NCBI GenBank assembly: GCA_965140585.1
Contig: OZ223272.1
Location: forward strand, 160,001 to 224,000
Length of the DNA stretch: 64,000 nt
Origin: Spirochaetia bacterium
Lineage (GTDB): Bacteria > Spirochaetota > Spirochaetia > UBA9216
Reading direction: 5' to 3'
In this document: piece by piece, positions 11,888 through 28,582 of the stretch
Layout: the number at the start of each line of letters is the position of its first letter
How positions within the stretch are numbered: the first letter of the stretch is position 1
Made by a program: the position numbers and the translations under genes
The notes under the pieces: generated by a model
What the model saw: the letters and a program-made list of their open reading frames with translations, nothing else
What the model was told of the DNA's origin: nothing
Database searches by the model: none

Positions 11888-12949
11888 ATGGCCGGATTAG
11901 AAAAAAACATCAGCAGATATGAGCTTTTCAGACGACGTTCACAGCTCATCACAGCCATTAGAAATTTTTTAACAGAATCAGGCTATCTGGAGGCTGAAGT
12001 ACCTATCCTCGCCCCGTCCGTCATCCCGGAAGGTCCTATTGAACTTTTTAAAACGGAATACCGGAACCCATACGGAGTATCGAAGGATATGTACCTGCTT
12101 CCATCGCCTGAATACTATCTGAAACAGCTGATAGCCGACGGATGCGGTGACATTTTTAATATTTCAAAGTGTTTCAGAAACAGCGAACAGATAGGCCGCA
12201 TACACAATCCCGAGTTCTCTATGCTTGAGTACTACACTATGGAAGCTGATGCCGAAGATTCGATAAGAATTACCGAAAAGCTTTTTTCGAGGCTGCTTGA
12301 TTTTGTACAGGAGCAGTGGCCGGAGACTGTAAAAAAATCAGAATGGCTCCGTCCGCCCTTCACTAGAATTTCAATGACTGAAGCTTTTGAAAAACATGCG
12401 GCTCTTGATATAAGTGATTTCTGTACCGGAAAAATGAGTAAAGAAGAAGAGATTGCCGCCATGATTAGGGCTGCAGAAGGACTCGGCCTGAGCTGCAGCG
12501 GAGCTGGAAGTTCTGCTGAAAACTCTGATTACAGCTGGGAAGAGCTATTCAACCTGATATTTGTTCATTCTGTAGAGCCAAATCTTGATTCAGAAAGACC
12601 GCTTGTTCTTTATGACTACCCTTCAGGGATCCCGACACTTGCAAAACCATCTAAAATCCCCGGCCGCCTTCAGAGATGGGAACTCTATGCAGGAGGGGTC
12701 GAGCTTGCCAACTGCTACTCGGAAGAGACTGACTATGAGCGTGCTGTTGATTTTTTCAGAAAGGAAAACGAGGAGAAGCAGGCGGCTCTTGTATCGCTTA
12801 AAGCAGATGAATCATGGTGTGAAATCTTTAAAAAAGGGTTTCCCGACTGTTCAGGAGTGGCTCTTGGAATAGACCGCCTTATGATGCTTATACTTGATTC
12901 TTCATCGCTTGAGGGGGTGATTTTGTTCCCCTTTTCTGCTATAATTTAG
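11888..12949 (+). CDS. epmA: EF-P lysine (R)-beta-lysine ligase (EpmA/GenX/PoxA)
   Basis: LysRS catalytic-domain-only protein: LLPSPEYYLK, CFRNSE..HNPEFSMLEYY, ELANCYSE, CSGVALGIDRL; adjacent to efp. Confidence 0.93.
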   Translation: MAGLEKNISRYELFRRRSQLITAIRNFLTESGYLEAEVPILAPSVIPEGPIELFKTEYRNPYGVSKDMYLLPSPEYYLKQLIADGCGDIFNISKCFRNSEQIGRIHNPEFSMLEYYTMEADAEDSIRITEKLFSRLLDFVQEQWPETVKKSEWLRPPFTRISMTEAFEKHAALDISDFCTGKMSKEEEIAAMIRAAEGLGLSCSGAGSSAENSDYSWEELFNLIFVHSVEPNLDSERPLVLYDYPSGIPTLAKPSKIPGRLQRWELYAGGVELANCYSEETDYERAVDFFRKENEEKQAALVSLKADESWCEIFKKGFPDCSGVALGIDRLMMLILDSSSLEGVILFPFSAII

Positions 12950-13018
12950 TTTACGGACATCGTTACAGCCTTATCTAACAGGCCTGCGCGGTGTCCTCTT
13001 AATTCTCTGAAAGGACAT

Positions 13019-13585
13019 ATGATGATAAAAGCAGGACAAATTGATAAAGGAACCTTTCTCCTTCTGAAAGGATACCCCTACCTCGTTGCAGAGAGGGAAT
13101 TTGTAAACCCCGGTAAGGGCTCAGCCTTCGTCAGGCTGAAACTGAAGAACCTGATTGACGGTTCTGTTCTCAAAGAAACAATGAAAAGCCAGGACAACGT
13201 TGAAGATATTACAGTCGAAGACAAAGACTGTCAGTACCTCTACTCGGACGGTGAAAACTACCACTTCATGGACAATGAGACCTTCGAGCAGTTCGAAATA
13301 CCCGTCGTTACAATGCAGGAACAGGGCCTCTACATGAAAGACGGCGAAACTTACAAGGTAATCATCTACGATGGAAAACCGATTGATATCAAGATTCCAT
13401 ACAAAGTCGTATATGAAGTAACCGAGGCTGCTGAAGCACTCAAGGGCGATACTGTAACAGGTGCAACCAAGGTTGTAACAGTTGAAACAGGCCTTAAAGT
13501 AAAAGTACCCATCTTCATCAAACAGGGCGAAAGAATCCTTGTTAACACCGAAACCGGGGAGTATGTAGAACGGGTAAACAACTAA
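13019..13585 (+). CDS. efp: Translation elongation factor P
   Basis: NPGKGSAFVRLKLK; KGDTVTG; VPIFIKQGERI..TETGEYVER. Confidence 0.98.
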   Translation: MMIKAGQIDKGTFLLLKGYPYLVAEREFVNPGKGSAFVRLKLKNLIDGSVLKETMKSQDNVEDITVEDKDCQYLYSDGENYHFMDNETFEQFEIPVVTMQEQGLYMKDGETYKVIIYDGKPIDIKIPYKVVYEVTEAAEALKGDTVTGATKVVTVETGLKVKVPIFIKQGERILVNTETGEYVERVNN

Positions 13586-13629
13586 AGTTCGACAACAAAT
13601 ACATTAACCGGATAGCTGAATCAAAGTTT

Positions 13630-14787
13630 ATGGGAGAGAAGCTGCGTTTTTATCTCTCTCATGGACTGTTCAGCAGCTTCAGTATCGATGCCGGAACAAT
13701 GCTGCTTTTAAAAACTGTAGCCCAGCATCTGAATCCTGAAAATTATACTTCCATACTTGATTCCGGCTGCGGCACCGGAGTCATTGCAATAAGTCTTAAA
13801 AAGAAATTTCCCCTTCTTCAGGTTACAGCATCCGATCGCGATGCTCTTGCCCTGCAGTTTACATCAATGAACACAAAACTCAACGGCATGCCTGCAGACA
13901 GTATCAGCATAATTCCCGGTCTTCTTCCAGGCAGCCTTGAATCTGAAGAGAAACAGGACGGCAGATACGATCTTATTCTATCCAATATTCCTGCGAAGGC
14001 CGGAAATCCGGTTATTGCCGATTTCATTCAGAACTGCGGCTATCACCTTAATAATGACGGAATTGCAGCAGTTGTAATAGTTGAGCCGCTGAGTGATTTT
14101 ACAGAGAATGAAATCAAGGCTTGCGGAGCCGAACTGCTCTACAGCGAAAAAACTCCTCAATATACGGTATTTCATTTCAAACCTGCAGATCTATACCGTA
14201 ACAGAACCAGGACGCTTTCCTTTGAAAAACTTTACGGCCGAACTGTTTCAGGCAGCGGATTCACGGGTTTCTACGGACTTCCCGAATTCGACTCGGTTTC
14301 CTATGCTTCGGAACTCCTTATTGATACATTAAAGGATTCAGCAAGGGCAGGTAAAATCCTGTTCTGGAACCCCGGTCAGGGTCATATTACATCAGCTTAT
14401 TCAGCCCTGAACGGTACGGAGAACGCCGAAATTATACTTGCCGGAAACGATCTTCTCCAGTTAAAGGCAGCTGCTTTTAATCTTGGAGAACGTAAATCAT
14501 CAAACCTTCATCTTCCTGTATACTCTGAACTTTCAATGCACCCGGGGTTTGAAGGCAGCATAAAGGAAATCGCTGCTGTTCCGCTATTTGTACCAGGAGC
14601 AGATGCGGAAGCTGAAATAATTGAAACATCCTTAAAAATACTTTCTCCGGGCGGAAAATTGATCATCGCCGGCAAAAGCTCAGATATGGCAAAAATTGAA
14701 AGGGTGAAAGGCAGTTTCAGCATTATTTTCAGCAGAAAATACCGCGGATTCAGAGTAATGGTGCTAAAATCCCGACCAAACCGATAA
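13630..14787 (+). CDS. Class I SAM-dependent methyltransferase (RsmC/MTS-like)
   Basis: LFSSFSIDAGTMLLL; ILDSGCGTGVI; DLILSNIPAK; the start codon may lie further upstream. Confidence 0.8.
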   Translation: MGEKLRFYLSHGLFSSFSIDAGTMLLLKTVAQHLNPENYTSILDSGCGTGVIAISLKKKFPLLQVTASDRDALALQFTSMNTKLNGMPADSISIIPGLLPGSLESEEKQDGRYDLILSNIPAKAGNPVIADFIQNCGYHLNNDGIAAVVIVEPLSDFTENEIKACGAELLYSEKTPQYTVFHFKPADLYRNRTRTLSFEKLYGRTVSGSGFTGFYGLPEFDSVSYASELLIDTLKDSARAGKILFWNPGQGHITSAYSALNGTENAEIILAGNDLLQLKAAAFNLGERKSSNLHLPVYSELSMHPGFEGSIKEIAAVPLFVPGADAEAEIIETSLKILSPGGKLIIAGKSSDMAKIERVKGSFSIIFSRKYRGFRVMVLKSRPNR

Positions 14788-14865
14788 ATAATACCTTTAT
14801 TATTTGGACTTATTACCTTATAATTTTTCATAATCTAAAAAGGTCAGGCTAAGGAGACTTTTCAA

Positions 14866-15288
14866 ATGAGAATAACAACTAAGGGAAGATACGGATTACG
14901 GGCAATCCTGAAACTGGCGGAGCAGGAAGACGGAAAACCTGTTTCAATCAGCTCAATTGCCGCCGAAGAAGATATTTCACCGGAGTTCCTTGAGCAGATT
15001 TTTTATAAAATGAAAAAATCAGGAATAATAAAATCTACCAGAGGCCCCGGAGGCGGATTCAGTCTTTCAAGACCGGTAGATCAGATTACAATTGAAGATT
15101 TACTTATTTCGGTCGGAGAACCTGTCATGCTGACACCCTGCTCAACAGATGACTGTAAAAAAGACTGTGACAGAACCGAAAATTGTAAGGCCTACACAAT
15201 ATGGAATGATATAAGCGATCATATCAATGAATATTTCAGAACACTTACAATAAAAGATATAATCGAAAAAAACCTTGCTAAAGTCTAA
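14866..15288 (+). CDS. Rrf2 family regulator (IscR/CymR-like) with Cys cluster
   Basis: MRITTKGRYGLRA; ISPEFLEQIF; STRGPGGGF; PCSTDDCKKDCDRTENC; AAGGAG RBS. Confidence 0.92.
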   Translation: MRITTKGRYGLRAILKLAEQEDGKPVSISSIAAEEDISPEFLEQIFYKMKKSGIIKSTRGPGGGFSLSRPVDQITIEDLLISVGEPVMLTPCSTDDCKKDCDRTENCKAYTIWNDISDHINEYFRTLTIKDIIEKNLAKV

Positions 15289-15337
15289 GCCGGATTTTTT
15301 TTGTTGATATAAATCGATATCGTATTAAAATTAAGTT

Positions 15338-16441
15338 ATGAGCTTCCTAATAGGGATTGAGATTGATAATAGTCATGTAGCCTGGATGCACTCGCCTGAC
15401 GGAAAGGGTAAATCCAGACTCAATCTCACAACACTTTCAGATTATCAGCATACCGCGATTCTGAATTTCTATGTGAAAACCGACTCCAGAAAAATCAGAC
15501 TCATTTCTGAAACTATAAATAATATTCCGCCGGCAAAGGCAGGTGATCCCCTTATAACTGTAGAATCCGAACTTGTTAAGAGACGGATGAACTACAGCAT
15601 TTATCTGAACAACAGGTTTATCCGCAAATCAACAGTAAAAATCCCAAAGGAAGCAGTAAAAAAAGACAGATCGGTCATTATTCCGGTATCTATTGCTGCA
15701 GTTATCATTCTGCTTCTATTTGCACTTTTTTTACTTCCTGTAAGCCCATTAAGTATTTTTTCTTCCGACAGTATATTTTCTGCAGGAAGAAACCGCAGTT
15801 CAGTATCTGAAACCAGAAAGCAGGCTCAAACTTCTATTCCTGACCGGAAAATTGAGGATACAACACCAGCGACAGCTAAGCCGGCAGTTACAAAACCTGA
15901 AATATCAAGAACTGCAGAGGAAAAAACTGCCGAAGCAGAGCAGCTGGGCCGGCAGCAGACTTCTCCTGAAAAAACTGAAGAAGCTCCAGTGATTACACAG
16001 GAGAAACCGACGGAAGAACCCGCAACAGCTCCGGAACCGGCCCCGCCCGTCCCTGTAACAATAGTAATTGACAAGCAGCTCACCGTAAATTTCCTGCCGG
16101 ATAATGCAGATTTGACAGCAGAGGCCAGGAATAAGATAATTGAATTTGTAAAGCAGTTACCTACCGGGGACAATACCGACCTTGATATGATTCAGATTGA
16201 TATTACAGGACATTGCGCAAGGTTTGGAACAGAAAGCGGGCGAGTTGAGCTCAGTGAAGCAAGAGCCGCCAACACAAGAGAATTCCTGCTTTCAATATGG
16301 AAGGTTCCAACCGATGCAAAGATCGAAGGATATGGAGCAGCACGGCCTGTGACCATGGAAAAGGATAAACAGTATCTGAACCGACGGGCCGAAATACACA
16401 TTACCGGGAGCGTGACTGAAGAACCAATAAAACAAGACTAA
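15338..16441 (+). CDS. Membrane-anchored OmpA/MotB-domain protein with DnaK-substrate-domain-like N-terminus and Pro/Thr/Glu-rich linker
   Basis: TM SVIIPVSIAAVIILLLFALFLL; OmpA motifs NFLPDNADL, ITGH, LSEARA, GYGAARP, NRRAEI. Confidence 0.8.
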   Translation: MSFLIGIEIDNSHVAWMHSPDGKGKSRLNLTTLSDYQHTAILNFYVKTDSRKIRLISETINNIPPAKAGDPLITVESELVKRRMNYSIYLNNRFIRKSTVKIPKEAVKKDRSVIIPVSIAAVIILLLFALFLLPVSPLSIFSSDSIFSAGRNRSSVSETRKQAQTSIPDRKIEDTTPATAKPAVTKPEISRTAEEKTAEAEQLGRQQTSPEKTEEAPVITQEKPTEEPATAPEPAPPVPVTIVIDKQLTVNFLPDNADLTAEARNKIIEFVKQLPTGDNTDLDMIQIDITGHCARFGTESGRVELSEARAANTREFLLSIWKVPTDAKIEGYGAARPVTMEKDKQYLNRRAEIHITGSVTEEPIKQD

Positions 16442-16451
16442 GGAGTTTTTT

Positions 16452-17735
16452 ATGCAGAAGAATGTGGGATTTGTTTCTTTCCGGATAGCAGGAACAGATG
16501 GAGTAAGCCTGGAAATTGCAAAATGGGCTGATGTTTTTGAGAGAAACGGCTGGACCTGTTATTACTTTGCGGAAGAACTGGACACACCTGCCGAAAGATC
16601 CTTCGTATCCAAATACGCACATTTCAAAAATCCTGTTATAGACGAAATCAACAAGAAGATATACGGACGCTCAGTAAGAGATCCGGAACTTACAGCAAAG
16701 ATACATCATTACCGAAAACGTATCAAAGAAGAACTCTATCAGTTTGTAGAAAAATTCAATATTGATCTTCTTATTCCCCAGAATGCGGTTACCATACCGC
16801 TGAATATCTCACTTGCTCTGGCTATTACCGAAATGATCGGTGAAACCGGAATAAAAACAATTGCCCATCATCATGACTTCTTCTGGGAAAGAAAAAGATT
16901 CCTTCGAAACTGTGTCTGGGATTACTTCAATATGGCTTTTCCTCCGCATCTGCCTTCAATTGAGCATGTCGTTATCAATACATCCGGCCAGAACCAGCTG
17001 GCACTACGTACCGGAATTTCATCAACCCTGATTCCTAATGTCATGGATTTCAACAAGCCTGCACCGGGAATTGATGACTATAATAAGGATATGAGGGAGG
17101 CTCTGGGGATAAGTGATGATGAGATACTTATTCTGCAGCCAACCAGGGTAGTTCAGCGAAAGGGTATTGAGCATGCTATAGAACTGGTAAGCAGGCTGGG
17201 TGAAAAAGCGGTATTCGTAATCTCACACGCATCAGGTGATGAAGGCCATGAATATGAAAACCGGGTCAGGGAATACGCGAACCTGATGAAAATCAAAGCC
17301 ATATTTGTTTCCGATCTCATTGCTGAAAAACGAGAAATAAAAGATGGTAAAAAGATCTACACCCTGCAGGATATTTATCCGCATGCCGATTTTGTAACCT
17401 ACCCCTCACTTATCGAAGGATTTGGAAATGCATTCCTTGAAACCCTTTACTTTAAGAAACCTATTCTTGTTAACAATTATTCTATCTACTTCACTGATAT
17501 AAAGCCCAAGGGATTCGATGTCATAGAAATGGATGACTTTATAACAGACGAAACAGTAAAACGGGTTAAGGAAATCCTGACAGATGAAGAAAAACGGAAA
17601 ACGATGGTCGAAACCAACTTTGATCTTGCAAGATGCTTCTATTCATATGAGGTGCTCGAGGAGAAGCTTTTGGATCTGATCACAAGGTTCTGGGGCGCAA
17701 ATCAGGCATGTTCCTGCAGCGATAATAATTCTTGA
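16452..17735 (+). CDS. GT4 glycosyltransferase, MggA/MggS-like (mannosylglucosylglycerate pathway family)
   Basis: RIAGTDGVSLEIAKW; AHHHDFFWER; QPTRVVQRKGIEHAIEL; YPSLIEGFGNAFLE. Confidence 0.8.
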   Translation: MQKNVGFVSFRIAGTDGVSLEIAKWADVFERNGWTCYYFAEELDTPAERSFVSKYAHFKNPVIDEINKKIYGRSVRDPELTAKIHHYRKRIKEELYQFVEKFNIDLLIPQNAVTIPLNISLALAITEMIGETGIKTIAHHHDFFWERKRFLRNCVWDYFNMAFPPHLPSIEHVVINTSGQNQLALRTGISSTLIPNVMDFNKPAPGIDDYNKDMREALGISDDEILILQPTRVVQRKGIEHAIELVSRLGEKAVFVISHASGDEGHEYENRVREYANLMKIKAIFVSDLIAEKREIKDGKKIYTLQDIYPHADFVTYPSLIEGFGNAFLETLYFKKPILVNNYSIYFTDIKPKGFDVIEMDDFITDETVKRVKEILTDEEKRKTMVETNFDLARCFYSYEVLEEKLLDLITRFWGANQACSCSDNNS

Positions 17736-17755
17736 CAATTTTTGTAAGTTTTTTC

Positions 17756-17784
17756 TTGACATATTAGCCATAACTAACTATATT
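17756..17784 (+). promoter_or_regulatory. sigma70-type promoter for the small ORF
   Basis: TTGACA (17756-17761)-N17-TATATT (17779-17784). Confidence 0.75.
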
Positions 17785-17818
17785 ATACATATAGAAATCA
17801 GGTATACGGAGGTTAGTT

Positions 17819-17983
17819 ATGACTGATAAAGATAGAATGAAAGAACTTCTTGAACACAGCTTGTTAATGCCTTTCGTTGGTAGTTCACCATTTCATGGTG
17901 AGCCTGAGAAATATCGAAAATTTAAAAGTTCTAAAGAAGGAATTCCTGAATACCCTGCCATGGGATTTACACTTTACGGGTAG
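17819..17983 (+). CDS. Unannotated 54-aa small protein MTDKDRMKELLEHSLLMPFVGSSPFHGEPEKYRKFKSSKEGIPEYPAMGFTLYG
   Basis: Translated by hand (below the ORF-track cut-off); GGAGG RBS, own promoter and own terminator. Confidence 0.75.
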   Translation: MTDKDRMKELLEHSLLMPFVGSSPFHGEPEKYRKFKSSKEGIPEYPAMGFTLYG

Positions 17984-18021
17984 GAATTCTAATTGAGTCC
18001 ATCCGACCCTCTCTCCTCCTG

Positions 18022-18056
18022 AGACAGGCTGTTGTCAGCAGCCTGTCTTTTCTTTT
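18022..18056 (+). terminator. Intrinsic terminator after the small ORF
   Basis: AGACAGGCTG-loop-CAGCCTGTCT followed by TTTCTTTT. Confidence 0.85.
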
Positions 18057-18066
18057 ATACAGACAT

Positions 18067-20355
18067 TTATTTGAAGAGAGCCTCGGCTTCTTTAACGGTT
18101 TTTGCATAGAGGGCCTGTGACATGAAGGCGTTACAGTCATCGAGAGTCCAGCCTGAAATCATATTTTTCAGTTCAGGAATGCGCAGCGGGTCGACGCTTA
18201 CTTTTCTGATCCCCAAGCCTATTAGATATTTTAATATTCCCGGTTCACCGGCAGCCTCGCCGCATACTGAAAGTTCTGTACCGGCAGCAAGAGCACCCTC
18301 GGTTATTCTTTTCAGTGAGCGTAGAATTGCAGGGTGGCAGGGCTTGAACATTCCTCTGACCATTTCATTTGTACGGTCTACTGCCAGAGTATACATAATA
18401 AGGTCATTGGTACCTATGCTCAAAAAATCCGCAGCTTCGGCAAGATCGTCAATAGCCTCAACGGCAGCCGGGAGCTCAACCATCGCGCCCAGTTCCGGAC
18501 TTAGGTTTGCGGGAGCTCCATCATTTTTAAGAAGATCGATGCACTTTTCGACAAGCCCCTTGGCCTCCAGAAATTCGTCAACACTTGAAACCATGGGAAA
18601 CATAATCTTAAGTTTGAACCCCTCTCCGGCCCTGAGCATTGCGCGAATCTGGTCCTGAAACAGTTCAGGATGGCCGAGTGAAAAACGTATTCCGCGAAAG
18701 CCAAGAAAGGGGTTGGCTTCGGAAGTGTTGGATGCATATCCGGGAATCTTATCGCCTCCGATATCAAGTGTCCGAAGAATGCACTCACGGCCTTCGGCAC
18801 GCTGGAGTATTTTACGGTAAATACGGCACTGTTCTTCTTCTGAAGGAAATTCATTTCTAATTATAAAGGGAAATTCACTTCTGTAGAGACCGACTCCTTC
18901 AGCCTTAACATTGACTGCGGTTTTTATATCATGAGTTATATTTATATTTGCAAAAACCTTAATTCGCTCACCATCAGCAGTAAAGGTCTGCTCAGGTATT
19001 GCAGAGAAATCTTCAAAAGCCTTTTTACCAAGCCTTGTCGCATAACTTTCCACAATGTCTCTGGACGGATTAACGTGTAGAAGCCCCATTCGGGTATCCA
19101 TAAAAAGCTCGGAACCTCCCGGAATGGATAGTACACGTCGGTCTCCGGTAATAAGCATGGGAAAACCCAAAGATCTTGCAAGAATGGAAATATGAGCTGT
19201 AATACCCATTCCGTAGAGAACAAGGCCCTGTGAACGCTGAAGCCAGATCTTCACCAGTTCGGAAGGGAAAATATCTTCGGCTATTACTATATTGTGAGAA
19301 TAATCCGCGTGATCCAGTGATTCTCCGTAAAGGTTAGCCAGAAGCCGGTGTTCAAGATCACGGAGATCCTGAACCTTTTCCTGAATACCGGGCAGGTCGG
19401 ACTTCTCAAATATATCGGAATACTGTGAAACAATCCTGCGCACGGATTCATCAGCCTTGAAACCAGCTTCAATAAGCTGTCTCATCTGGCCTGTAAAATT
19501 ATCGTCACGGAGCATCAGAAAGTGTGCAGTAAAGATCATTCCCGCCACATCTGCAAGAGATTCATCTATCGAAGACTGCAGCTCTTCAAGCTGGTTCATT
19601 GACAGCTCAAGGGCTCTGTCAAAGGCTGTAAGATTTACATCTGTACAGCAGGTGTCATCTTCACTGTCCCTGCAGCTCTGCAGTTTATCACCGGGAACAA
19701 GTGATTGATAACTCACATTACTCTGGGCCCTTCTGACATTCAGCAGAAAGGCTTCTCCCCGGACGGTTCCCGTTGAAGCTCCGGTTCCCCTTATACTCAG
19801 ATTGTAAAATTCACTTGAAAGATCTTTTTTTGCCGCAGAAAGACTCATCAGCCATTCTGAGTTTTCAATTGAAGCAGCAAGCTGTGAGGCGATAGCTTTC
19901 AGAGCGGCAGTATCACGCCGGCTGAAGTAGTTAGGTTCACGGTGCTGAATTGTAATCACACCGATCCTGTTAAGACCTTTTCGTATGGGTACAGCAAGAA
20001 AGGCTTCAAACTGTTCCTCATATATATCCTGAAAGAATTTAAAGTTCGGATTTTTTGACGCGCTGGCTTCCCTGATTGGTCTCAGTTCCTGAAGGGCAGT
20101 TCCGGTTATCCCCTCACCCATCTTGAGCCTTACAGCCCCGATCGATGAGGGAGACAGGCCTACTGTTGCACGCAGTACGAGTTCTTCAGACTTATTATCA
20201 TACAAATAAATGGAGCATACGTCAGCGCTCATATGCTCCGCAACCATCTCTACAATATCCTGCAGGAGGTTTGAAAGACTGCTTTTTTTATCAAAAACCG
20301 AGGCAAGCTCAGCTGTACTTACAATAAGATCAATATTATCTCTTCTTCCATTCAT
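18067..20355 (-). CDS. ptsP: GAF-domain phosphoenolpyruvate-protein phosphotransferase (EI-Ntr/PtsP-like)
   Basis: N-terminal GAF (DVCSIYL..LRATVGL..GEGITG); phospho-His TAHISILAR; GLYRSEF; RTLDIGGDK; SIGTNDL; SVCGE. Confidence 0.92.
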   Translation of the reverse strand: MNGRRDNIDLIVSTAELASVFDKKSSLSNLLQDIVEMVAEHMSADVCSIYLYDNKSEELVLRATVGLSPSSIGAVRLKMGEGITGTALQELRPIREASASKNPNFKFFQDIYEEQFEAFLAVPIRKGLNRIGVITIQHREPNYFSRRDTAALKAIASQLAASIENSEWLMSLSAAKKDLSSEFYNLSIRGTGASTGTVRGEAFLLNVRRAQSNVSYQSLVPGDKLQSCRDSEDDTCCTDVNLTAFDRALELSMNQLEELQSSIDESLADVAGMIFTAHFLMLRDDNFTGQMRQLIEAGFKADESVRRIVSQYSDIFEKSDLPGIQEKVQDLRDLEHRLLANLYGESLDHADYSHNIVIAEDIFPSELVKIWLQRSQGLVLYGMGITAHISILARSLGFPMLITGDRRVLSIPGGSELFMDTRMGLLHVNPSRDIVESYATRLGKKAFEDFSAIPEQTFTADGERIKVFANINITHDIKTAVNVKAEGVGLYRSEFPFIIRNEFPSEEEQCRIYRKILQRAEGRECILRTLDIGGDKIPGYASNTSEANPFLGFRGIRFSLGHPELFQDQIRAMLRAGEGFKLKIMFPMVSSVDEFLEAKGLVEKCIDLLKNDGAPANLSPELGAMVELPAAVEAIDDLAEAADFLSIGTNDLIMYTLAVDRTNEMVRGMFKPCHPAILRSLKRITEGALAAGTELSVCGEAAGEPGILKYLIGLGIRKVSVDPLRIPELKNMISGWTLDDCNAFMSQALYAKTVKEAEALFK

Positions 20356-20375
20356 ACGGAAGATATAATATCAGA

Positions 20376-22094
20376 TTATTCACGAATCAGCCACAAAACT
20401 TCCCATGGTTCAAGTAAAATATTTTCACCGTTAAACCTGCTGCTTCCCGGCAGAAAAGCCGTATCGGTAATTATATCACGCATAGCAGAGTGCCCAATCT
20501 TCTGCTCCTGCTGCTTTGATGAAAGGTTTACAAGACAGAGAACCTTTTCACCTTTTTCATCAGATTCCCGCTCAAAAGCGAGTACAGATTCGGCTGAACT
20601 TACAATATTGAAGGCTGATGATGGATGAAAGGCCATATTCTGACGTCTGGCCGCAAGCATTCTCCGGTATCCGCTGAAAACAAGGGCTCTGAAAGATGCA
20701 GGATCGGCAAGCTCTGCAGTAACTTCATCAAAATCAAGCTTCTGCCTGTTTATGGTCCGGTTCATTCCGGTTACAGACACGCCTTCTTTCCAGTTGCCTG
20801 ATCCTATCAGACTATGTACATAGATTCCGGGAACTCCCGGAAATCCGAGAAGGATTGACTGTGAAGCAAGAAATTTCCGGGAACGTGAGTCTGCAGGAAG
20901 ATTTTTTTCCGCAACCGCGTCACAGTAGTTTACATTCATTTCATAGGGAATATCCCCGGTAGCTGTAGCTTTGTAAGAAATAAGGCCGCCCCTGTTTTTA
21001 ACACTGGCGATCAGCCCGTCAAGTTCATCCTCAGTCAGTATGCCCCTGGCAGGAAGAACCCCTACTCCGTCATGAGAAGCAAGAAAGTTGAAATAGGTAG
21101 TTCTGCCGTCAGGCGGCGGAAGCTCAGAAGCCCAGGCCTTCAGATGACCAGAGTCCTCCCTTAGAAAGGCGTCAAGAACCATCGGCGGAAGGGCAAACTG
21201 GTAGATCATCTGGGCTTCGTCGGTGCCGTTACCGAAATATGAGATGTTTTCCTTGTGGGGAACATTGGTTTCAGTAATAATTACAACCCAGGGTACAAAC
21301 TCATCAACAACAGCCCTGAAAAGCTGTACAGCTGCGTGCGTTTTAGGATGGTGCAGACATGAGTGGCCAAGTTCCTTCCACAGATAGGCGATAGCATCGA
21401 GTCTGATAACCTGAATGCCCTTCTGAACGTGAAACAGAAAAACGTCAATCATCTCAAGCATGATATCGGGATTTCCGAAATTCAAATCGACCTGATCGGC
21501 ACTGAAGGTTGTCCATACATGCTTTTTACCCTCTGCGGTGTCGAAGGCCGTCAGCAGAGGCAAAGCCCTCGGACGGAAAACCATCGACACATCAGTATCT
21601 TCCGGGACATCAATAAAGTACTCTTTGTATTTGCCATCACAGGCCAGGTAGGACTTAAACCATTCAGAGCTTGCAGAGCAGTGGTTAAGCACCAGATCGC
21701 TCATCAGTTTAAAGTTTTTACCGATCCCTTCCACGTCATCCCAGTCTCCCCAGTCAGGATTAACTTCCATATAGTCGACTATTGAAAATCCGTCATCAGA
21801 TGTATACGGAAAAAATGGCAGTATATGAACACCGGAAAGAAAGTCGGAAGTTTCCTGTTTAAAAAACTCACCCAGAGTCTTCATATGCGACTGGCCTTTC
21901 TTCTGAAACTGGTCCCCGTAGGTAATTACAAAAGCATCCTTCTCATCAAGCGGCAGAAGTCCCGTACCACAGTTGGAAGGTTTTTCGATGTTTGTCATTC
22001 GACGGGACACAAGAGCTTCAAGGCGGTTTTCTGTTTCTTTCCCGACATCTTCACCATAGATAAATGTTAAAAGTTCTCTTATCTTTGTATTCAT
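20376..22094 (-). CDS. GH13_18 phosphorylase, glucosylglycerate phosphorylase type (YcjM-like)
   Basis: WTTFSADQVDLN; RLDAIAYLWK; ITETNVPH; NFLASHDGVG; PYEMN. TETN and YExN are glucosylglycerate-phosphorylase signatures, unlike sucrose phosphorylase EIH / YQVN. Confidence 0.88.
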   Translation of the reverse strand: MNTKIRELLTFIYGEDVGKETENRLEALVSRRMTNIEKPSNCGTGLLPLDEKDAFVITYGDQFQKKGQSHMKTLGEFFKQETSDFLSGVHILPFFPYTSDDGFSIVDYMEVNPDWGDWDDVEGIGKNFKLMSDLVLNHCSASSEWFKSYLACDGKYKEYFIDVPEDTDVSMVFRPRALPLLTAFDTAEGKKHVWTTFSADQVDLNFGNPDIMLEMIDVFLFHVQKGIQVIRLDAIAYLWKELGHSCLHHPKTHAAVQLFRAVVDEFVPWVVIITETNVPHKENISYFGNGTDEAQMIYQFALPPMVLDAFLREDSGHLKAWASELPPPDGRTTYFNFLASHDGVGVLPARGILTEDELDGLIASVKNRGGLISYKATATGDIPYEMNVNYCDAVAEKNLPADSRSRKFLASQSILLGFPGVPGIYVHSLIGSGNWKEGVSVTGMNRTINRQKLDFDEVTAELADPASFRALVFSGYRRMLAARRQNMAFHPSSAFNIVSSAESVLAFERESDEKGEKVLCLVNLSSKQQEQKIGHSAMRDIITDTAFLPGSSRFNGENILLEPWEVLWLIRE

Positions 22095-22204
22095 ATTTAA
22101 AGTTTAACGGATACGGGTAGAAAATCAACTCATTATTGCAGCCTGTGCATAAACAGCTTGTAATTTAACCTGATATTAATTTAGAATCGGAAGCGGAGGA
22201 GCTT

Positions 22205-23755
22205 CTGAACGGCTTTACTGTTTTTCATTACCATCTTCTTCCCGGCGGCGTAACAAGTGTAATAATGCTCGGAATAAACTCCCTTCTAAAATACTATCCC
22301 GAACCGGTGAAGATCAGCATCGCAACCGGAATTGAAGAAAATACCGAAAAGGTAAAAAACGGCCTGCACAGGCCTGATGATGTTAATATCAAGGTAATAC
22401 CGGAAATCTATTATCGTGACTCCAGCCTCAGCTTCGGCAAAAAAGAGGTAAAGGCTCTTTCAGAAAAACTGCTTAAAAACTTCAGCGGCACGGTCTGGTG
22501 GATTCATAATTTCCAACTTGGAAAGAACCCGCTTTTTACTGCTGCAGTACTGTATACTATTAGAAATTATCCTCATCAGAAGTTCATACTGCACATTCAC
22601 GACTTTCCCGAATGCGCCCGGTACGATAACCTTGAAGCCATCAGCATTCCGCTGATTGGAGATCCCTACCCTGTACTACCCAACGTGGTCTACTGCCTTA
22701 TCAACAGCAGAGACAGGGACAAGCTGATTGCTGCGGGTATTCCTGAAAAACAGGTATTGCTGCTGAATAACCCTGTGGAAAGCACAGAACCTGTAGAGAA
22801 ACCTTCTGAACAGCAAAGGCTGAAACTTAGAAATGATCTGTTTGCCTACTTTAGAAAGGATTTCCCGGGACTTTCTGAAGATGGAAAGATCCTCTTCTAC
22901 CCGGTAAGATCGATACGGAGGAAGAATATTCTTGAGGCTGGTCTTATTGCCTCGGCATCAGAAGCTGATGTAAATCTGATAGTAAGCCTTCCCGGCGTCT
23001 CATCCCAGGAAAGGCAGTATTCTGATTTGTGCGCTGAAAGTTTCTCAAACGGACTTATTCCCGGTATTTTCGGAACAGGACTCGTAAGAGATAACAGCAT
23101 CCCCTCATATGAACAGATGCCTGGAATATCAGACTTGATTGTTTCCACATCAGTTCAGGAAGGCTTCGGTTACCTTTTTATTAATTCAGTCCAGTGGCAG
23201 ATTCCGCTGTTTGCAAGAAGTCTTGAGACCATGGGCGGACTTGAACCTCTGTTAAGAAATCATGAAAACTGTTTTTATGACAGGTTTGATGTTCCAGTTG
23301 ATGGTGAAACGATCCAGGCACTTAAAGCGATGTACTTGAAAAAACTAGAAGGTATTTCAGGATACCTCACAGATTCAAGAATTTCCGCACTAAAAGAAAA
23401 TATTGAATCTGAGTTCACAGCTGAAACAACTGATTTTGCATATCTTTCGGTTGAAGAACAGTTGAACTGCCTTAAAAAGGCTGCCGGCTCTGCTGATTAT
23501 CGAAAGACTCTAAATGAACTGAACAGAAAAACTTTCAGTGAACTTTACAGGCTCCTGAATACGGATGATGCCGGAATTTTTCCCGATACAAACGGCTTCA
23601 GCCCGGAGAACCACGCATTGACTATTAAAAAGGCTGCGGATATTCTAAACGCAGACTACGAGGCATCCCGAACCGGAAAACCGGCGCAGGTACAGAAAAA
23701 TCTTATTGACGGATTTACCGGACTGGACAACATGAGGCTCTTATATGACTATTAA
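22205..23755 (+). CDS. Second GT4-type glycosyltransferase; probable non-canonical CTG start at 22205 (track starts at ATG 22265)
   Basis: In-frame HYHLLPGGVTSVI upstream of the first ATG; WIHNFQLGKN; HIHDFPE; YPVRSIRRKNILEA; TSVQEGFGYLF. Confidence 0.75.
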   Translation: MNGFTVFHYHLLPGGVTSVIMLGINSLLKYYPEPVKISIATGIEENTEKVKNGLHRPDDVNIKVIPEIYYRDSSLSFGKKEVKALSEKLLKNFSGTVWWIHNFQLGKNPLFTAAVLYTIRNYPHQKFILHIHDFPECARYDNLEAISIPLIGDPYPVLPNVVYCLINSRDRDKLIAAGIPEKQVLLLNNPVESTEPVEKPSEQQRLKLRNDLFAYFRKDFPGLSEDGKILFYPVRSIRRKNILEAGLIASASEADVNLIVSLPGVSSQERQYSDLCAESFSNGLIPGIFGTGLVRDNSIPSYEQMPGISDLIVSTSVQEGFGYLFINSVQWQIPLFARSLETMGGLEPLLRNHENCFYDRFDVPVDGETIQALKAMYLKKLEGISGYLTDSRISALKENIESEFTAETTDFAYLSVEEQLNCLKKAAGSADYRKTLNELNRKTFSELYRLLNTDDAGIFPDTNGFSPENHALTIKKAADILNADYEASRTGKPAQVQKNLIDGFTGLDNMRLLYDY

Positions 23756-24962
23756 AAAAACTCTGGTTTTAATATTTTCCCTTTTTATTTCCACACAGGC
23801 ATTCGCCGCATCTCAGGACAATCTGAAGGTCAGCCTTGTATTCAACGGTCCGGCCGATGAGCTGTATTCCTGGTGGGGGCATGTAGCAATAGTAATTGAA
23901 GATGTTTCAAACGGACATGCCCGCTACTACGACTACGGCAACTTCAGTTTTGATCAGGACTCTTTTGTAAGAAACTTTGTTATGGGCCGACTTTTTTTTC
24001 TTAAAATGGCATCAAATCCCGGAGGCCAGTACAGATACGGTATAATGCTTAACCGTGATATTACCCGGTATGAGCTGAACCTGAGCAGGGAACAGGCCTC
24101 AGCCCTCAGGGATTTTCTTGAGGAGGAAATCAAGCCCGATAACCGGATCTATCTGTATGATCACTTCTATGATAACTGCTCAACAAGAATCCGTGATGCA
24201 ATAGATATGGTTCTCGACGGAGAACTGCACGCTGCCTCGCTTGATAAATCAGAGTATACAATAAGAGAGGACTTCAGACGCTTTACCACCGGAAGCCCCT
24301 ATATGGACTGGCTGCTGAATTTTGCCATCAACGGTTCAATAGACCGCGAAATCCTTGTATGGGATGAAATGTACCTTCCGGCGGAGCTGGAGAAAAACAT
24401 TAAAACCCTGGTGATCACAGATTCAAAGGGAGAATCAGTTCCCCTGGTAGCCAGCAGGGAAGTTCTTAACGAAGCCCAGGGCAGAGTTGAAATACCCGAA
24501 CATGCCAAGGCAGCCTGGCCGCTGGGTCTGCTTTCCGGAATTATGGGCGCCGTAATTTCTGCTGTGCTTCTTCTTGCCGGACGAAGAAACAACCTGTTCA
24601 ACAGATTATTCGGTATTTTCAGCGCCATGCTTTCACTTGCCCTGGCGCTTACAGGCTCACTGCTTTTATTTATGGCTCTGTTTACAGACCATGCTTTTTC
24701 ATACTGGAATCAGAACCTGCTTTTCATTAACCCGTTTCTGTTCGTAACACTCATCCATTCAATCAGGGTTGCGGCAGGTAAAAAGTCTGCGTATATAAGC
24801 CTTCGCAGGTGCTGGAACGTCACTGCAGCATGTACAATTATTGCACTGCTTCTAAAAATCATTCCTGCAATATATCAGGCTAATATGACCAGTATCATAT
24901 TCATGATTCTTCCTGCAGTAACAATTTCTGCACTAATGTCAAGAAAAAAATCCTTTGTCTGA
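23745..24962 (+). CDS. DUF4105 membrane protein (Lnb-like lipoprotein N-acyltransferase family)
   Basis: Signal peptide; GPADELYSWWGH; YDYGNFSF; YLYDHFYDNCSTRIRD; C-terminal TM bundle. Confidence 0.82.
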   Translation: MTIKKTLVLIFSLFISTQAFAASQDNLKVSLVFNGPADELYSWWGHVAIVIEDVSNGHARYYDYGNFSFDQDSFVRNFVMGRLFFLKMASNPGGQYRYGIMLNRDITRYELNLSREQASALRDFLEEEIKPDNRIYLYDHFYDNCSTRIRDAIDMVLDGELHAASLDKSEYTIREDFRRFTTGSPYMDWLLNFAINGSIDREILVWDEMYLPAELEKNIKTLVITDSKGESVPLVASREVLNEAQGRVEIPEHAKAAWPLGLLSGIMGAVISAVLLLAGRRNNLFNRLFGIFSAMLSLALALTGSLLLFMALFTDHAFSYWNQNLLFINPFLFVTLIHSIRVAAGKKSAYISLRRCWNVTAACTIIALLLKIIPAIYQANMTSIIFMILPAVTISALMSRKKSFV

Positions 24963-25057
24963 TATTTAGCTCAGATGTGCCTCGATCCTTGTATCTTTTA
25001 CCTCAAACCACTATAATAATTGAACAACAATAAATTTAATTTTTGGAAGGGATACAA

Positions 25058-28000
25058 ATGGCTGATAAGAAAATGGTTACCATTGACGGTAATAGTGCAG
25101 CTGCGCATGTGGCCTATGCTTTCAGCGAAGTTGCTGCTATTTACCCGATTACACCATCGTCTCCTATGGGAGAATACGCTGATTCCTGGGCATCCACAGG
25201 AAGAGAAAACGTTTACGGAAAAATTGTAGACGTTATGGAAATGCAGTCCGAGGCCGGAGCAGCAGGTGCTGTTCACGGAGCACTTAGCGGTGGCGCTCTT
25301 ACCACTACTTTTACTGCATCTCAGGGTCTGCTTCTGATGATTCCGAATATGCATAAGATTGCCGGAGAAATGCTTCCGACAGTTTTCCATGTTTCTGCAA
25401 GATCACTTGCTGCACAGTCACTCTCAATCTTCGGAGATCACTCCGACGTAATGTCAACAAGAAACACCGGTTTCGCAATGACTGCTGCATCAAACATCCA
25501 GGAAACAATGGATATGGCTCTTGTTGCTCATCTTGCAACACTTAAATCAGAGATACCATTCCTTGCATTTTTCGACGGATTCAGAACTTCACACGAGATC
25601 ATGAAGGTTGAAGAGATATCATACGCTGATATCAAATCACTGATTGAACCCAAATACATCGAGAAGTTCCGCTCAAGAGCAATGAAACCTGAAGCACCTA
25701 TTGTTAAGGTTGCTGCTCAGAACCCTGATGTTTACTTCCAGGGTCGCGAAACTTCAAACAACTACTACGACGCTGTTCCTGGAATTGTACAGGAATACAT
25801 GGACAAGGTTGCCAAAATTACCGGCCGCCAGTATCACCTTTTTGATTATGTCGGAGCTCCTGATGCTGAAAAAATCATCATCGCTATGGGAAGCGCCTGC
25901 GATACTATCGAATTAACTGTTAATGCCCTTGTTGCAAAGGGTGAAAAAGTCGGAGCCATCAAGGTAAGACTTTATCGACCATTCTCTGTGGAAGCATTTG
26001 TTGATGCTATTCCTGCAAGTGTTAAGAAAATCGCTGTTCTTGACCGAACTAAAGAGCCCGGATCACTTGGTGAACCACTCTTCCTCGATGTTGCTGCTGT
26101 TCTTGCAGGAAAAGACATCAAGGTAGTCGGCGGACGCTACGGTCTTTCTTCAAAAGAATTCACACCGTCTCATGTTAAAGCCGTTCTTGATCACCTTGAC
26201 GGAGCAGCTTTCAACGGATTCACAGTCGGAATCAAAGACGATGTAAGCAATAAATCAATCGACGTTAAGGAAGAAATTGATGCAATTCCTTCAGACGTTG
26301 TTTCCTGTATGTTCTGGGGTCTGGGTTCAGACGGTACAGTAGGTGCGAACAAAAACTCAATCAAAATCATCGGTGACAACACTGATATGAACGCACAGGG
26401 ATACTTTGACTATGACTCAAAGAAGTCAGGAGGTATCACAGTTTCTCACCTTAGATTCGGAAAGAGCAAGGTTAACTTTCCATGGCTCATTACAAAGGCA
26501 GACTTTGTTGCATGTTCAAACCCCGCTTATATCGGACGATACGACATGCTCGGGCCTCTCAAGGAAGGCGGAGTATTCCTCCTGAACGCATTGGTTCCTG
26601 CAGATGAGGTATTCTACACCCTCACTGAAGAAGAACAGCAGATAATGATCGATAAAAAGATCAACTTCTACTGCATGAACGCGTATGACGTTGCTGAAGA
26701 AGTAGGTCTAGGTAACAGAACAAATACTGTAATGCAGGCTGCGTTCTTCAAGATTTCAGGTATTCTTCCTGAAAAAGAAGCAATTGACCTGATGAAGGCT
26801 GCTGCAAAGAAAACTTTCGCAAAGAAGGGTGACGATATCGTTAAGATGAACTGGAACGCTATTGATCAGTCAGCTGCAGCTCTCAAGAAAGTTGAAGTTC
26901 CTGCATCATTACCCGGAAAGTGCTATACAGCACCCAAGCTGATTAAAGACGATGCGGATGATTTTGCAAAGAACATTGTTGAAAAAATAATGCACCTCAA
27001 GGGCAATGACATCCCTGTTTCACAGATGTCATACGATGGTACACTTCCTACCGGAACAACTAAGCTTGAAAAGCGCGGTGTTGCACCACGTGTTCCGAAC
27101 TGGCTTGGTGAAAACTGTATTCAGTGTAACCAGTGTGTTCAGTCATGTCCCCATGCTGCAATAAGAACAAAGATGATCGAAACTGATAAAATGGCAGGGG
27201 CTCCTGATACTTTTGATGCTGTTAAATACAAGGCATCCAAAGACAAGGAATACATGTACAAGATTCAGATGTTCATCGAAGACTGTCAGGGATGCGGTGT
27301 ATGTATTGAAACATGTCCTGCAAAGACAAAGGCTCTTGAATGGAGTACCCTTGAAGTTGAAAGAGCTGCAGGCGAAACTGCAAACGAAGCTTTCTTTGAG
27401 ACACTACCCTACGGTGCACTTGACGGATCATCAGAAGAAAATGTTAAGGGAATGCAGTTCAGACAGCCTCTGTTCGAGTTCTCCGGAGCATGTGCCGGTT
27501 GTGGAGAGACTCCGTATGTTAAACTTGTAACTCAGGTCTGCGGAGACAGAATGGTTGTTGCAAATGCAACAGGATGTTCTTCAATTTACGGCGGAACTTT
27601 CCCGACTATTCCTTACACAAAGAAACCCAACGGACGCGGTCCTGCATGGGGCAACTCACTTTTCGAAGACAATGCTGAATATGGTTTCGGTATGAGACTC
27701 GCTGTAGACTCAAACAGGGACCTCCTTAAACTCAAAGCAGAAAAAGCTCTCCAGCTTGGACTTAAGGGTGCTGCAGCAGATGCTCTTAAAAAACAGCTGG
27801 AAATGTGGACGTCTGTAGAACAGACTGCAATTGACGGTCAGGATGCTCTTGGTGTACTTCTTGAAGCTGAGGCTGCAAAGGCTTCAGGAGAGATGAAAGA
27901 AACTCTCGACAAGATGGTTGAACTTAAAGACTATTTTGTTGACAAGAGTGTATGGATTCTCGGCGGTGACGGATGGGCATATGACATCGGTTACGGCGGT

Positions 28001-28582
28001 GTTGACCACGTAGTAGCCATGGGCAAGAATGTCAACATCCTTGTTATGGATACAGAGGTTTACTCAAACACCGGTGGACAGGCATCAAAGGCCACTCCGA
28101 TTGCCGCAGTTGCAAAGTTTGCTAATGCAGGTATGCAGCTTACAAAGAAGAACATGGGCTTCATGTGTATGAGCTACGGCTATGTATATGTTGCATCCAT
28201 TTCAATGGGAGCAAACAGGGCACAGGCTCAGAAAGCGATCATGGAAGCTGAAGCATATGATGGACCTTCAATCATCTTCGCATACGCACCATGTATCAAC
28301 CACGGTATCGATATGTCAAAGTCACAGGCTGAAGCAAAACGTGCTGTTGAAGCAGGCTACTGGCCGCTTTACAGATACAACCCTGCACTTGAAGAAGGCA
28401 AGAGGTTCAACTGGGAAACAAAAGATCCTACAGCTTCATTTCAGGACTTCATCAGAAGTGAAAGAAGGTACACAGCTCTTCAGGCAACCAACCCCGACCA
28501 TGCAGAGGAACTCTTTGCACTGGCAGAAGAGGATGCAAAGAAGAGAATGGACTTCTACAAAAAGCTTGGCGAAATAATGTAA
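25058..28582 (+). CDS. nifJ: Pyruvate:ferredoxin (flavodoxin) oxidoreductase
   Basis: AIYPITPSSPMGE; MQSEAGAAG; two CxxCxxCxxxCP ferredoxin motifs; FSGACAGCGE; GGDGWAYDIG; start moved to ATG 25058 after GGAAGGG. Confidence 0.98.
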   Translation: MADKKMVTIDGNSAAAHVAYAFSEVAAIYPITPSSPMGEYADSWASTGRENVYGKIVDVMEMQSEAGAAGAVHGALSGGALTTTFTASQGLLLMIPNMHKIAGEMLPTVFHVSARSLAAQSLSIFGDHSDVMSTRNTGFAMTAASNIQETMDMALVAHLATLKSEIPFLAFFDGFRTSHEIMKVEEISYADIKSLIEPKYIEKFRSRAMKPEAPIVKVAAQNPDVYFQGRETSNNYYDAVPGIVQEYMDKVAKITGRQYHLFDYVGAPDAEKIIIAMGSACDTIELTVNALVAKGEKVGAIKVRLYRPFSVEAFVDAIPASVKKIAVLDRTKEPGSLGEPLFLDVAAVLAGKDIKVVGGRYGLSSKEFTPSHVKAVLDHLDGAAFNGFTVGIKDDVSNKSIDVKEEIDAIPSDVVSCMFWGLGSDGTVGANKNSIKIIGDNTDMNAQGYFDYDSKKSGGITVSHLRFGKSKVNFPWLITKADFVACSNPAYIGRYDMLGPLKEGGVFLLNALVPADEVFYTLTEEEQQIMIDKKINFYCMNAYDVAEEVGLGNRTNTVMQAAFFKISGILPEKEAIDLMKAAAKKTFAKKGDDIVKMNWNAIDQSAAALKKVEVPASLPGKCYTAPKLIKDDADDFAKNIVEKIMHLKGNDIPVSQMSYDGTLPTGTTKLEKRGVAPRVPNWLGENCIQCNQCVQSCPHAAIRTKMIETDKMAGAPDTFDAVKYKASKDKEYMYKIQMFIEDCQGCGVCIETCPAKTKALEWSTLEVERAAGETANEAFFETLPYGALDGSSEENVKGMQFRQPLFEFSGACAGCGETPYVKLVTQVCGDRMVVANATGCSSIYGGTFPTIPYTKKPNGRGPAWGNSLFEDNAEYGFGMRLAVDSNRDLLKLKAEKALQLGLKGAAADALKKQLEMWTSVEQTAIDGQDALGVLLEAEAAKASGEMKETLDKMVELKDYFVDKSVWILGGDGWAYDIGYGGVDHVVAMGKNVNILVMDTEVYSNTGGQASKATPIAAVAKFANAGMQLTKKNMGFMCMSYGYVYVASISMGANRAQAQKAIMEAEAYDGPSIIFAYAPCINHGIDMSKSQAEAKRAVEAGYWPLYRYNPALEEGKRFNWETKDPTASFQDFIRSERRYTALQATNPDHAEELFALAEEDAKKRMDFYKKLGEIM

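Follow-up and report, generated by a model that had tools for sequence, protein, structure and literature searches.

Contig OZ223272.1 of a Spirochaetia bacterium carries, within the 64,000-nucleotide (nt) stretch analysed here (the window), the gene ptsP for a GAF-domain Enzyme I (EI) of the phosphotransferase system (PTS), set among genes for two family-4 glycosyltransferases (GT4a and GT4b) and a GH13_18 phosphorylase assigned as a glucosylglycerate phosphorylase (GGaP). We consider it moderately probable that the locus combines a solute cluster of a known kind with the lineage-specific relocation of an ordinary ptsP, the latter not being a component specific to the cluster. Comparison of gene order suggests that EI came to be linked to the cluster incidentally, by chromosomal rearrangement, and not as part of a dedicated control circuit. 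A preliminary description of the locus had proposed a dedicated nitrogen-sensing GAF-EI phosphorelay; this proposal is not supported by the linkage counts across the class, by the usual genomic context of EI, or by a related genus that keeps EI and in which no GGaP orthologue was found.

Relocation of ptsP

The genome that contains the window (G000, with the window on its contig C9) was compared with relatives in the class, among which G001 is the other genome of the same genus. Many Spirochaetia families possess full-length GAF-EI orthologues, at 39%–51% identity. Their usual context is mfd-ptsP-trmB: in 9 of 14 loci from other families the EI gene lies directly 3' of a gene of roughly 1130 amino acids (aa) and 5' of one of roughly 230 aa, the names mfd and trmB being established in the representative locus L117 only, where citrate synthase and two EF-G genes follow. 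Within about 7 kb of EI, GT4a, GGaP and GT4b are all missing from these 14 loci. In G000 itself, a gap of 22 nt without ptsP separates mfd (C6:815315-818731) from trmB (818754-819407), and citrate synthase comes next. Given that the two genes abut, ptsP has left its usual slot.

The window's family (f1) comprises 11 genomes in five genera, and a GAF-EI orthologue is present in seven of them, namely both genomes of the window's genus and five of the six of genus g4. In all seven, EI is placed between GT4a and GT4b, although in one genome (G007) the arrangement spans the start of the record and in another (G006) an 8.5-kb insertion parts EI from GT4a. Genus g4 shows GT4a and GT4b on one strand with EI between them on the other, and no GGaP orthologue was found in its six genomes. 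In G009, a g4 genome that is 81% complete, GT4a and GT4b are 1.2 kb apart with no EI between. Two other f1 genera, represented by G002 and G005, possess the transferases, and no GAF-EI orthologue was found in either genome.

A survey of 401 genomes of the class, with EI orthologues taken at E up to 1e-150, yielded 96 genomes with both an EI orthologue and a listed GT4b position, after 17 GT4b matches without a listed position were left out. EI lies within 5 kb of GT4b in all seven f1 genomes and in 0 of the 89 others, in which at least 120 kb separates the two; the absence of linkage outside f1 thus points to a single event in a single family. EI adjoins GGaP in 2 of the 14 genomes that have both orthologues, both of them in the window's genus. 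Conservation of the ptsP adjacency in relatives had been fixed beforehand as what the dedicated relay depends on, and neither count bears it out. Among 80 loci related to EI, three of which cover the GAF region, none outside f1 has GGaP or a GT4 gene, which makes for a weak survey across phyla. EI is the single PtsP orthologue of its lineage, a housekeeping gene found throughout the class and not specific to the cluster.

The two f1 genera that carry EI are collinear from EpmA through EF-P, the methyltransferase, Rrf2, the OmpA-like protein, GT4a, EI, GT4b and Lnb to PFOR. Since the whole neighbourhood is equally collinear, the persistence of EI within it needs no special selection. Furthermore, the slot between GT4a and GT4b is filled by unrelated genes in other lineages, including a SpoU methylase, a pst-like ABC transporter, a radical SAM gene, serA/serC-like genes with DUF1015, and a PALP enzyme with an aminotransferase; the slot therefore tolerates insertions. 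We would place the move of ptsP in the common ancestor of the two genera, into this variable slot and beside a gene for a 54-aa protein (sORF54); it may have proceeded by translocation, or by loss and re-acquisition.

A glucosylglycerate cluster across the class

It is well supported that the region represents an old, Spirochaetia-wide cluster for a glucosylglycerate-derived glycoside, with GpgS encoded on another contig. Co-occurrence was counted in 61 genomes, comprising G000 and 60 relatives of the same class, in which a GGaP orthologue is present in 28, GT4b in 35 and GpgS in 39. All 35 GT4b-positive genomes have GpgS and none of the 22 GpgS-negative genomes has GT4b, counts that are descriptive, the genomes being related by kinship. 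Of the 28 genomes with GGaP, 17 have it no more than 10 kb from GT4a and/or GT4b. The typical order is an OmpA-like gene, GT4a, GGaP on the opposite strand, GT4b, in some cases Lnb, and PFOR, and the arrangement of GT4a, inverted GGaP and GT4b without any Enzyme I is conserved over many Spirochaetia families, as is the order GT4b-(Lnb)-PFOR. In G031, GGaP, GpgS and GT4a come together on one 7.4-kb stretch. GpgS of G000 is encoded on contig C2 and scores 383.8 bits, against a cut-off of 262.

The GpgS gene of G000 (locus L021 5888-8045) overlaps the end of an upstream gene on the same strand for an M20/M28-peptidase-like protein of 388 aa. No GpgP or MggB-type phosphatase was recognised adjoining it, and no MggB-type phosphatase was identified in the window. 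A glycerate kinase of the MOFRL type is encoded on the window's contig (C9:437455), and a search for a PF02595 kinase found none. The notion that EI, drawing on phosphoenolpyruvate (PEP), substitutes for a glycerate kinase was dropped, as the MOFRL-type enzyme is present.

Over its full length, the phosphorylase aligns with E. coli YcjM at 42% identity (478 bits), and RefSeq names YcjM glucosylglycerate phosphorylase. Solved sucrose phosphorylases (SP), GGoP, SPP (acting on sucrose-6F-phosphate) and amylosucrases reach at most 152 bits. The TETN and YEMN signatures claimed for a GH13_18 phosphorylase in the preliminary description were located at residues 274–277 and 384, respectively, along with RLDA at 231 and SHDG at 340. 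Within GH13_18, a GGaP is marked by a (T/S)ETN motif and a Glu in loop A (PMC7178133, available text). Both marks are found here, as PYEMN (residues 383–387) aligns with PYEIN of YcjM and thus places Glu, not Gln, in loop A. The motifs and the closest characterised relative make the prediction of a YcjM-type GGaP activity well supported; together with the presence of GpgS in the genome and the strict co-occurrence of GT4b and GpgS, they uphold the assignment to glucosylglycerate. The protein further resembles the enzymes of EC 2.4.1.352 (from E. coli, Meiothermus silvanus and Spirochaeta thermophila), which share the (T/S)ETN motif and the loop A Glu, in its size class of about 560–570 aa and its N-terminal extension, and one spirochaete GGaP has been characterised already (PMC7178133). 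Published GGaP genes are described as neighbouring those for glycerate kinase, GpgS or GpgP (PMC7178133), whereas here and in many Spirochaetia two GT4-type transferases adjoin GGaP and, in the window's genus, ptsP lies directly 3' of it.

The first transferase, GT4a, aligns with the whole of the mannosylglucosylglycerate synthase model NF041101, scoring 245.8 bits where the cut-off is 640. Of the preliminary assignment to an MggA/MggS-like GT4, the full-length resemblance to MggS thus stands and membership of the curated family does not; because the cut-off is missed and a paralogue scores 233.2 bits, we file GT4a as MggS-like only. Its orthologues in other Spirochaetia families are 46%–83% identical (62%–83% among the closer families) and mostly lie beside GGaP and/or GT4b. 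The paralogue (G000:C9:553634-554941, locus L017 7617-9014), which is outside the window and 37% identical to GT4a, is flanked by two GGDEF diguanylate cyclase genes, 3' of a HisKA_2 kinase gene, and has orthologues in most relatives.

The second transferase, GT4b, gave no Pfam or NCBIfam match in its 496-aa form. Its similarity to GT4a is distant (22% identity over 282 residues, E 3e-7). The AlphaFold2 model of the 496-aa form, which is without the first strand and the Gly-rich loop, has a pLDDT of 87.3 and a pTM of 0.86 and matches the GT-B/GT4 enzymes BshA, GlgM, SPS-like, HepE, TreT, WaaG and MshA at a Foldseek probability of 1.00. The model displays the two Rossmann-like domains and the EX7E-type C-terminal domain of the GT-B/GT4 fold, with EGFG at 299. 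The weak similarity and the Foldseek matches therefore bear out the earlier reading of this gene as a second divergent GT4.

We also note here a probable new start for GT4b. The conserved N-terminus FHYHLLPGGVT is encoded at 22205-22264, 5' of the first ATG (22265), and the in-frame upstream stretch LNGFTVFHYHLLPGGVTSVI aligns residue for residue with the N-termini of orthologues, MNRITIFHYHLLPGGVTNVI. At 22205 there is a CTG where the orthologues have ATG, with GGAGGAG just before it, and G001 is alike. Because the upstream frame aligns with the orthologues and GGAGGAG precedes the CTG, GT4b probably starts at this codon, which gives a predicted full protein of 516 aa.

At E up to 1e-30, GT4b belongs to a large family of 985 representative clusters. 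Among the homologues listed, the best 120 bear the names hypothetical or generic glycosyltransferase, and ten lower-ranked representatives are equally uninformative. Its Atlas neighbours are unnamed clusters in Spirochaetota, Planctomycetota and Verrucomicrobiota. A GT4b profile found full-length matches, in open frames of 504–847 aa, in 47 of 151 genomes of a Pirellulaceae-type family, the family of a metagenome-assembled Pirellulaceae genome; two Planctomycetota genomes reached through loci had no match. The rare MggA enzymes of Rhodopirellula baltica and Petrotoga mobilis are likewise GT4-type proteins of about 500–550 aa (530 aa in R. baltica). MggA homologues occur in Spirochaetaceae (26%–28% identical), Planctomycetes and Verrucomicrobia, and every organism described with one also possesses GpgS (PMC3736172, available text), a distribution that GT4b matches. 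Judging from its length, its Atlas neighbours, the Pirellulaceae-type homologues and the co-occurrence with GpgS, GT4b is probably an MggA-type mannosylglucosyl-3-phosphoglycerate synthase. This likeness is one of length, distribution and GpgS co-occurrence. GT4b is set apart by about 110 aa of helical extension at its C-terminus and, within the window's genus, by its apparent CTG start.

Comparable systems are P. mobilis MggS and the operon-like mggS-mggB-sucrose phosphorylase cluster of R. baltica (Cunha et al. 2013, PMC3736172), the common trait being an MggS-like GT4 beside a GH13_18 phosphorylase. In contrast to our locus, the R. baltica phosphorylase acts on sucrose and the MggS homologue is inactive according to the same source, and GT4a falls below the MggS cut-off.

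These identities enable us to propose a putative pathway. GpgS would form glucosyl-3-phosphoglycerate, and GT4b and/or GT4a would append a second hexose to the phosphorylated or the free form. GGaP would recycle glucosylglycerate to glucose-1-phosphate and glycerate, and the MOFRL-type kinase could phosphorylate the glycerate released. Alternatively, the transferases might extend glucosylglycerate or glucosyl-3-phosphoglycerate to a different end product, for example a primed oligosaccharide or a glycolipid like the mycobacterial methylglucose lipopolysaccharide (MGLP) precursor, with GGaP salvaging the primer. The low NF041101 score of GT4a, which its paralogue nearly equals, is consistent with such a product, as are the position of GT4b outside every curated family, an R. 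baltica MggS homologue reported without detectable MggS activity (PMC3736172, available text), the unusual conservation of GT4a among closer families, and the presence of GT4a and GT4b where no GGaP orthologue was found (g4, G039, G016 and G023). However, GpgS accompanies GT4b without exception, the published Spirochaetaceae MggA homologues are of similar length to GT4b (R. baltica MggA has 530 aa) and also come with GpgS (PMC3736172, available text), and GT4b-profile homologues are found in the Pirellulaceae-type genomes. We therefore rate a different product as unlikely.

The Enzyme I and its PTS partners

The EI encoded in the window comprises a GAF domain (residues 27–163), a PEP-utilisers_N domain (189–326), a mobile domain (355–420) and a PEP-binding domain (456–734), as defined by Pfam. 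It scores 404.3 bits against the generic model TIGR01417 (cut-off 341.7), and 444 bits against the PtsP equivalog NF008283, below the cut-off of 583. The phospho-His388 (TAH) and the active-site Cys698 (CGE) are invariant in 20 EI orthologues. It thus shares with the proteobacterial EI-Ntr (PtsP) the order of GAF, EI-N, mobile His and PEP-binding parts, with the model aligned over residues 24–757, as well as the phospho-His and the catalytic Cys, and its genome also encodes HprK and an rpoN-linked HPr. It differs in scoring below the equivalog cut-off, in a family-specific insert, and in its usual spirochaete context, from which it has here been relocated.

The insert had been pointed out earlier as an extra Cys-rich segment, and we find it as QSCRDSEDDTCC at residues 226–237. 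It belongs to a stretch of about 17–20 aa in the N-terminal EI domain that has two or three Cys and the pattern C-x-D-(P/S)-(D/E)-(D/E)...C. Six of the seven f1 sequences carry it (that of G004 is without cysteines), as do none of 14 others. The alignment thus indicates that the Cys/acidic insert is specific to family f1, a restriction newly noted here.

As the preliminary description stated, there is no HPr gene in the window. None of the genome's two HPr (PF00381) or ten EIIA_2 (PF00359) matches is on C9, where the accompanying statement on EII genes was checked for EIIA_2 only and other EII families were not scanned. One HPr gene of G000 is found in the cluster lptC-lptA-lptB-rpoN-hpf-hprK-ptsH, and a sugar PTS operon of the genome brings an EI and an HPr of its own. 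There is also a second long paralogue of EI (G000:C7:320337-322229, locus L013 274-2442), which has 722 aa, is 36% identical to the GAF-EI, has an N-terminal region of roughly 160 aa with no Pfam GAF match, and is present in several relatives. The customary regulatory parts of the PTS are thus encoded away from the locus, a further ground for reading the linkage as incidental.

If ptsP was simply relocated, EI would most likely still serve a general PTS-Ntr-type relay, in which PEP would phosphorylate His388 in a GAF-gated manner and the phosphate would pass to an HPr such as that of the lptCAB-rpoN-hpf-hprK-ptsH cluster.

A small gene that accompanies the relocated EI

A conserved small gene of no known family, sORF54, which is newly noted here, accompanies the relocated EI. 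Its product is 96% identical in G001 and 74%–80% identical in four g4 genomes, and a fifth g4 copy is cut by a contig end. Nucleotide changes number 18–31 at third codon positions vs 2–10 at the other positions; this excess at third positions marks sORF54 as a genuine coding gene. It is invariably found immediately beyond the 3' end of EI, even in G006 with its GT4a at a distance of 8.5 kb. The protein has no Pfam match and no Atlas match at 0.9 or above, and a search of 5.8 billion proteins found only seven clusters, each 54 aa long. Diverged homologues of 47–49 aa that share LPFxG..PFH...GIAEYP..GF occur in G002 and G005, in unrelated contexts and in genomes without GAF-EI, so the small protein needs no EI. 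Prediction of a complex of EI with sORF54 returned a score of 0.00 which, being without controls, carries no weight either way.

An A/T-rich -10-like box also precedes the orthologous small genes, and hairpins equivalent to that at 18021-18049, with compensatory changes, follow them. Between the sORF54 stop codon and the hairpin, a CCCTCTCTCCTCC box at 17984-18020 (+), complementary to the GGAGG Shine-Dalgarno sequence, is present in six of six orthologous loci.

Does ptsP control the solute?

EI was indeed found, as first described, 20 nt 3' of the phosphorylase on the same strand, with a hairpin-free gap (20356-20375). Because of this gap, and because no strong hairpin is met until 18021-18049, past EI, ptsP and GGaP are probably co-transcribed in the window's genus.

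The earlier model, in a weakened form, would have the relocated PtsP take on a new task, linking nitrogen/carbon status with how a glucosylglycerate-type solute is turned over. PtsP would then act through co-expression with GGaP, through a promoter region shared with GT4b, or through phosphorylation-dependent control, with the insert and sORF54 as accessories. Such recruitment gains from several observations that at the same time weigh against a relocation without consequence. In the two genera, all seven genomes with both genes have EI beside GT4b, with its unit diverging from GT4b, an arrangement that lends the original idea some continued weight. This linkage has outlasted the divergence of the two genera, with EI 61%–68% identical, and the spacer to GGaP is short and terminator-free. 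The Cys/acidic insert is limited to f1; sORF54, itself highly conserved, keeps its place by EI even where GT4a is no longer close. The coincidence of relocation, insert and sORF54 on one lineage could mark a new function. Moreover, glucosylglycerate is tied to nitrogen limitation, and other bacteria accumulate it under nitrogen starvation (PMC11009771, available text). On the side of the solute cluster, too, GT4a and GT4b score below or outside the curated models, so that their substrates are predictions, and the link of GT4b to MggA is an indirect, probable one.

Against recruitment stand the total absence of the linkage outside f1, indicating a single event, and the equal synteny of unrelated neighbours, which makes persistence no sign of selection. 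Genus g4 retains EI with no GGaP orthologue found; G009 has GT4a and GT4b without EI between them; G002 and G005 carry the transferases with no GAF-EI orthologue found and harbour their sORF54 homologues in unrelated, EI-less contexts; and no HPr or EIIA gene is nearby. Our search of the literature found no paper that joins glucosylglycerate, nitrogen and ptsP, and in writings on EINtr in spirochaetes, including the available text of PMC2405797, this linkage is not described. On balance, recruitment of PtsP to the solute is in our view improbable. The fuller version, in which PtsP, its Cys-pair acidic insert and the 54-aa protein make up a neo-functionalised sensor through which nitrogen, carbon or redox status would govern the synthesis versus phosphorolysis of a nitrogen-free compatible solute, appears more doubtful still. 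We thus retain the incidental relocation of a housekeeping ptsP into a solute cluster of a known kind.

Layout of the locus

All four open reading frames of the preliminary description were recovered at the same positions and on the same strands; these and the other features are collected in Table 1. Scans for promoters and terminators gave totals no higher than those of shuffled sequences (12 vs 13.0 and 9 vs 7.8, respectively), and of their matches we rely only on the hairpin at 18021-18049, which is conserved in relatives. An Rfam search of 16000-24200 at E up to 0.1 gave no match. The flanks (11888-16441 and 23745-28582) hold housekeeping genes for an EpmA-like EF-P lysine ligase, EF-P, a double methyltransferase, an Rrf2/IscR-like regulator, an OmpA-domain protein, the lipoprotein N-acyltransferase Lnb, and PFOR.

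Table 1. Features of the ptsP-containing solute locus, in window coordinates
Feature	Coordinates	Strand	Basis
GT4a, MggS-like family-4 glycosyltransferase, 427 aa	16452-17735	+	Pfam Glycos_transf_1, NF041101 match
Promoter-like site TTGACA-17-TATATT, 5' of sORF54	17756-17784	+	11/12 consensus positions
sORF54, 54 aa, convergent with EI	17819-17983	+	GGAGG 7 nt 5' of ATG
Hairpin between convergent sORF54 and EI, likely bidirectional terminator	18021-18049		13-bp stem with 6 GC pairs, then T run
GAF-Enzyme I, PtsP/EI-Ntr type, 762 aa	18067-20355	-	Pfam domains, TIGR01417
Spacer between GGaP and EI, 20 nt, without terminator or obvious Shine-Dalgarno sequence	20356-20375	-	Read from sequence
GH13_18 glucosylglycerate phosphorylase (GGaP, YcjM type; predicted), 572 aa	20376-22094	-	Motifs, YcjM similarity
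GT4b, divergent GT-B glycosyltransferase, probably MggA-like	22205-23755 (probable CTG start); first ATG 22265, 496 aa from ATG	+	AlphaFold2, Foldseek, N-terminal alignment

Significance

In summary, this analysis describes a triad of GT4a, GGaP and GT4b, with GpgS elsewhere in the genome, that is conserved in Spirochaetia and extends the observations made on MggA homologues in 2013 and on GGaP in 2017. The case shows that a housekeeping regulator beside a metabolic operon can look like a dedicated circuit, and it leaves sORF54 and the EI insert as minor curiosities. If the coupling were true after all, it would be the first link of a PTS-Ntr-type sensor to a nitrogen-free compatible solute, and PtsP would gain a physiological output outside Proteobacteria.

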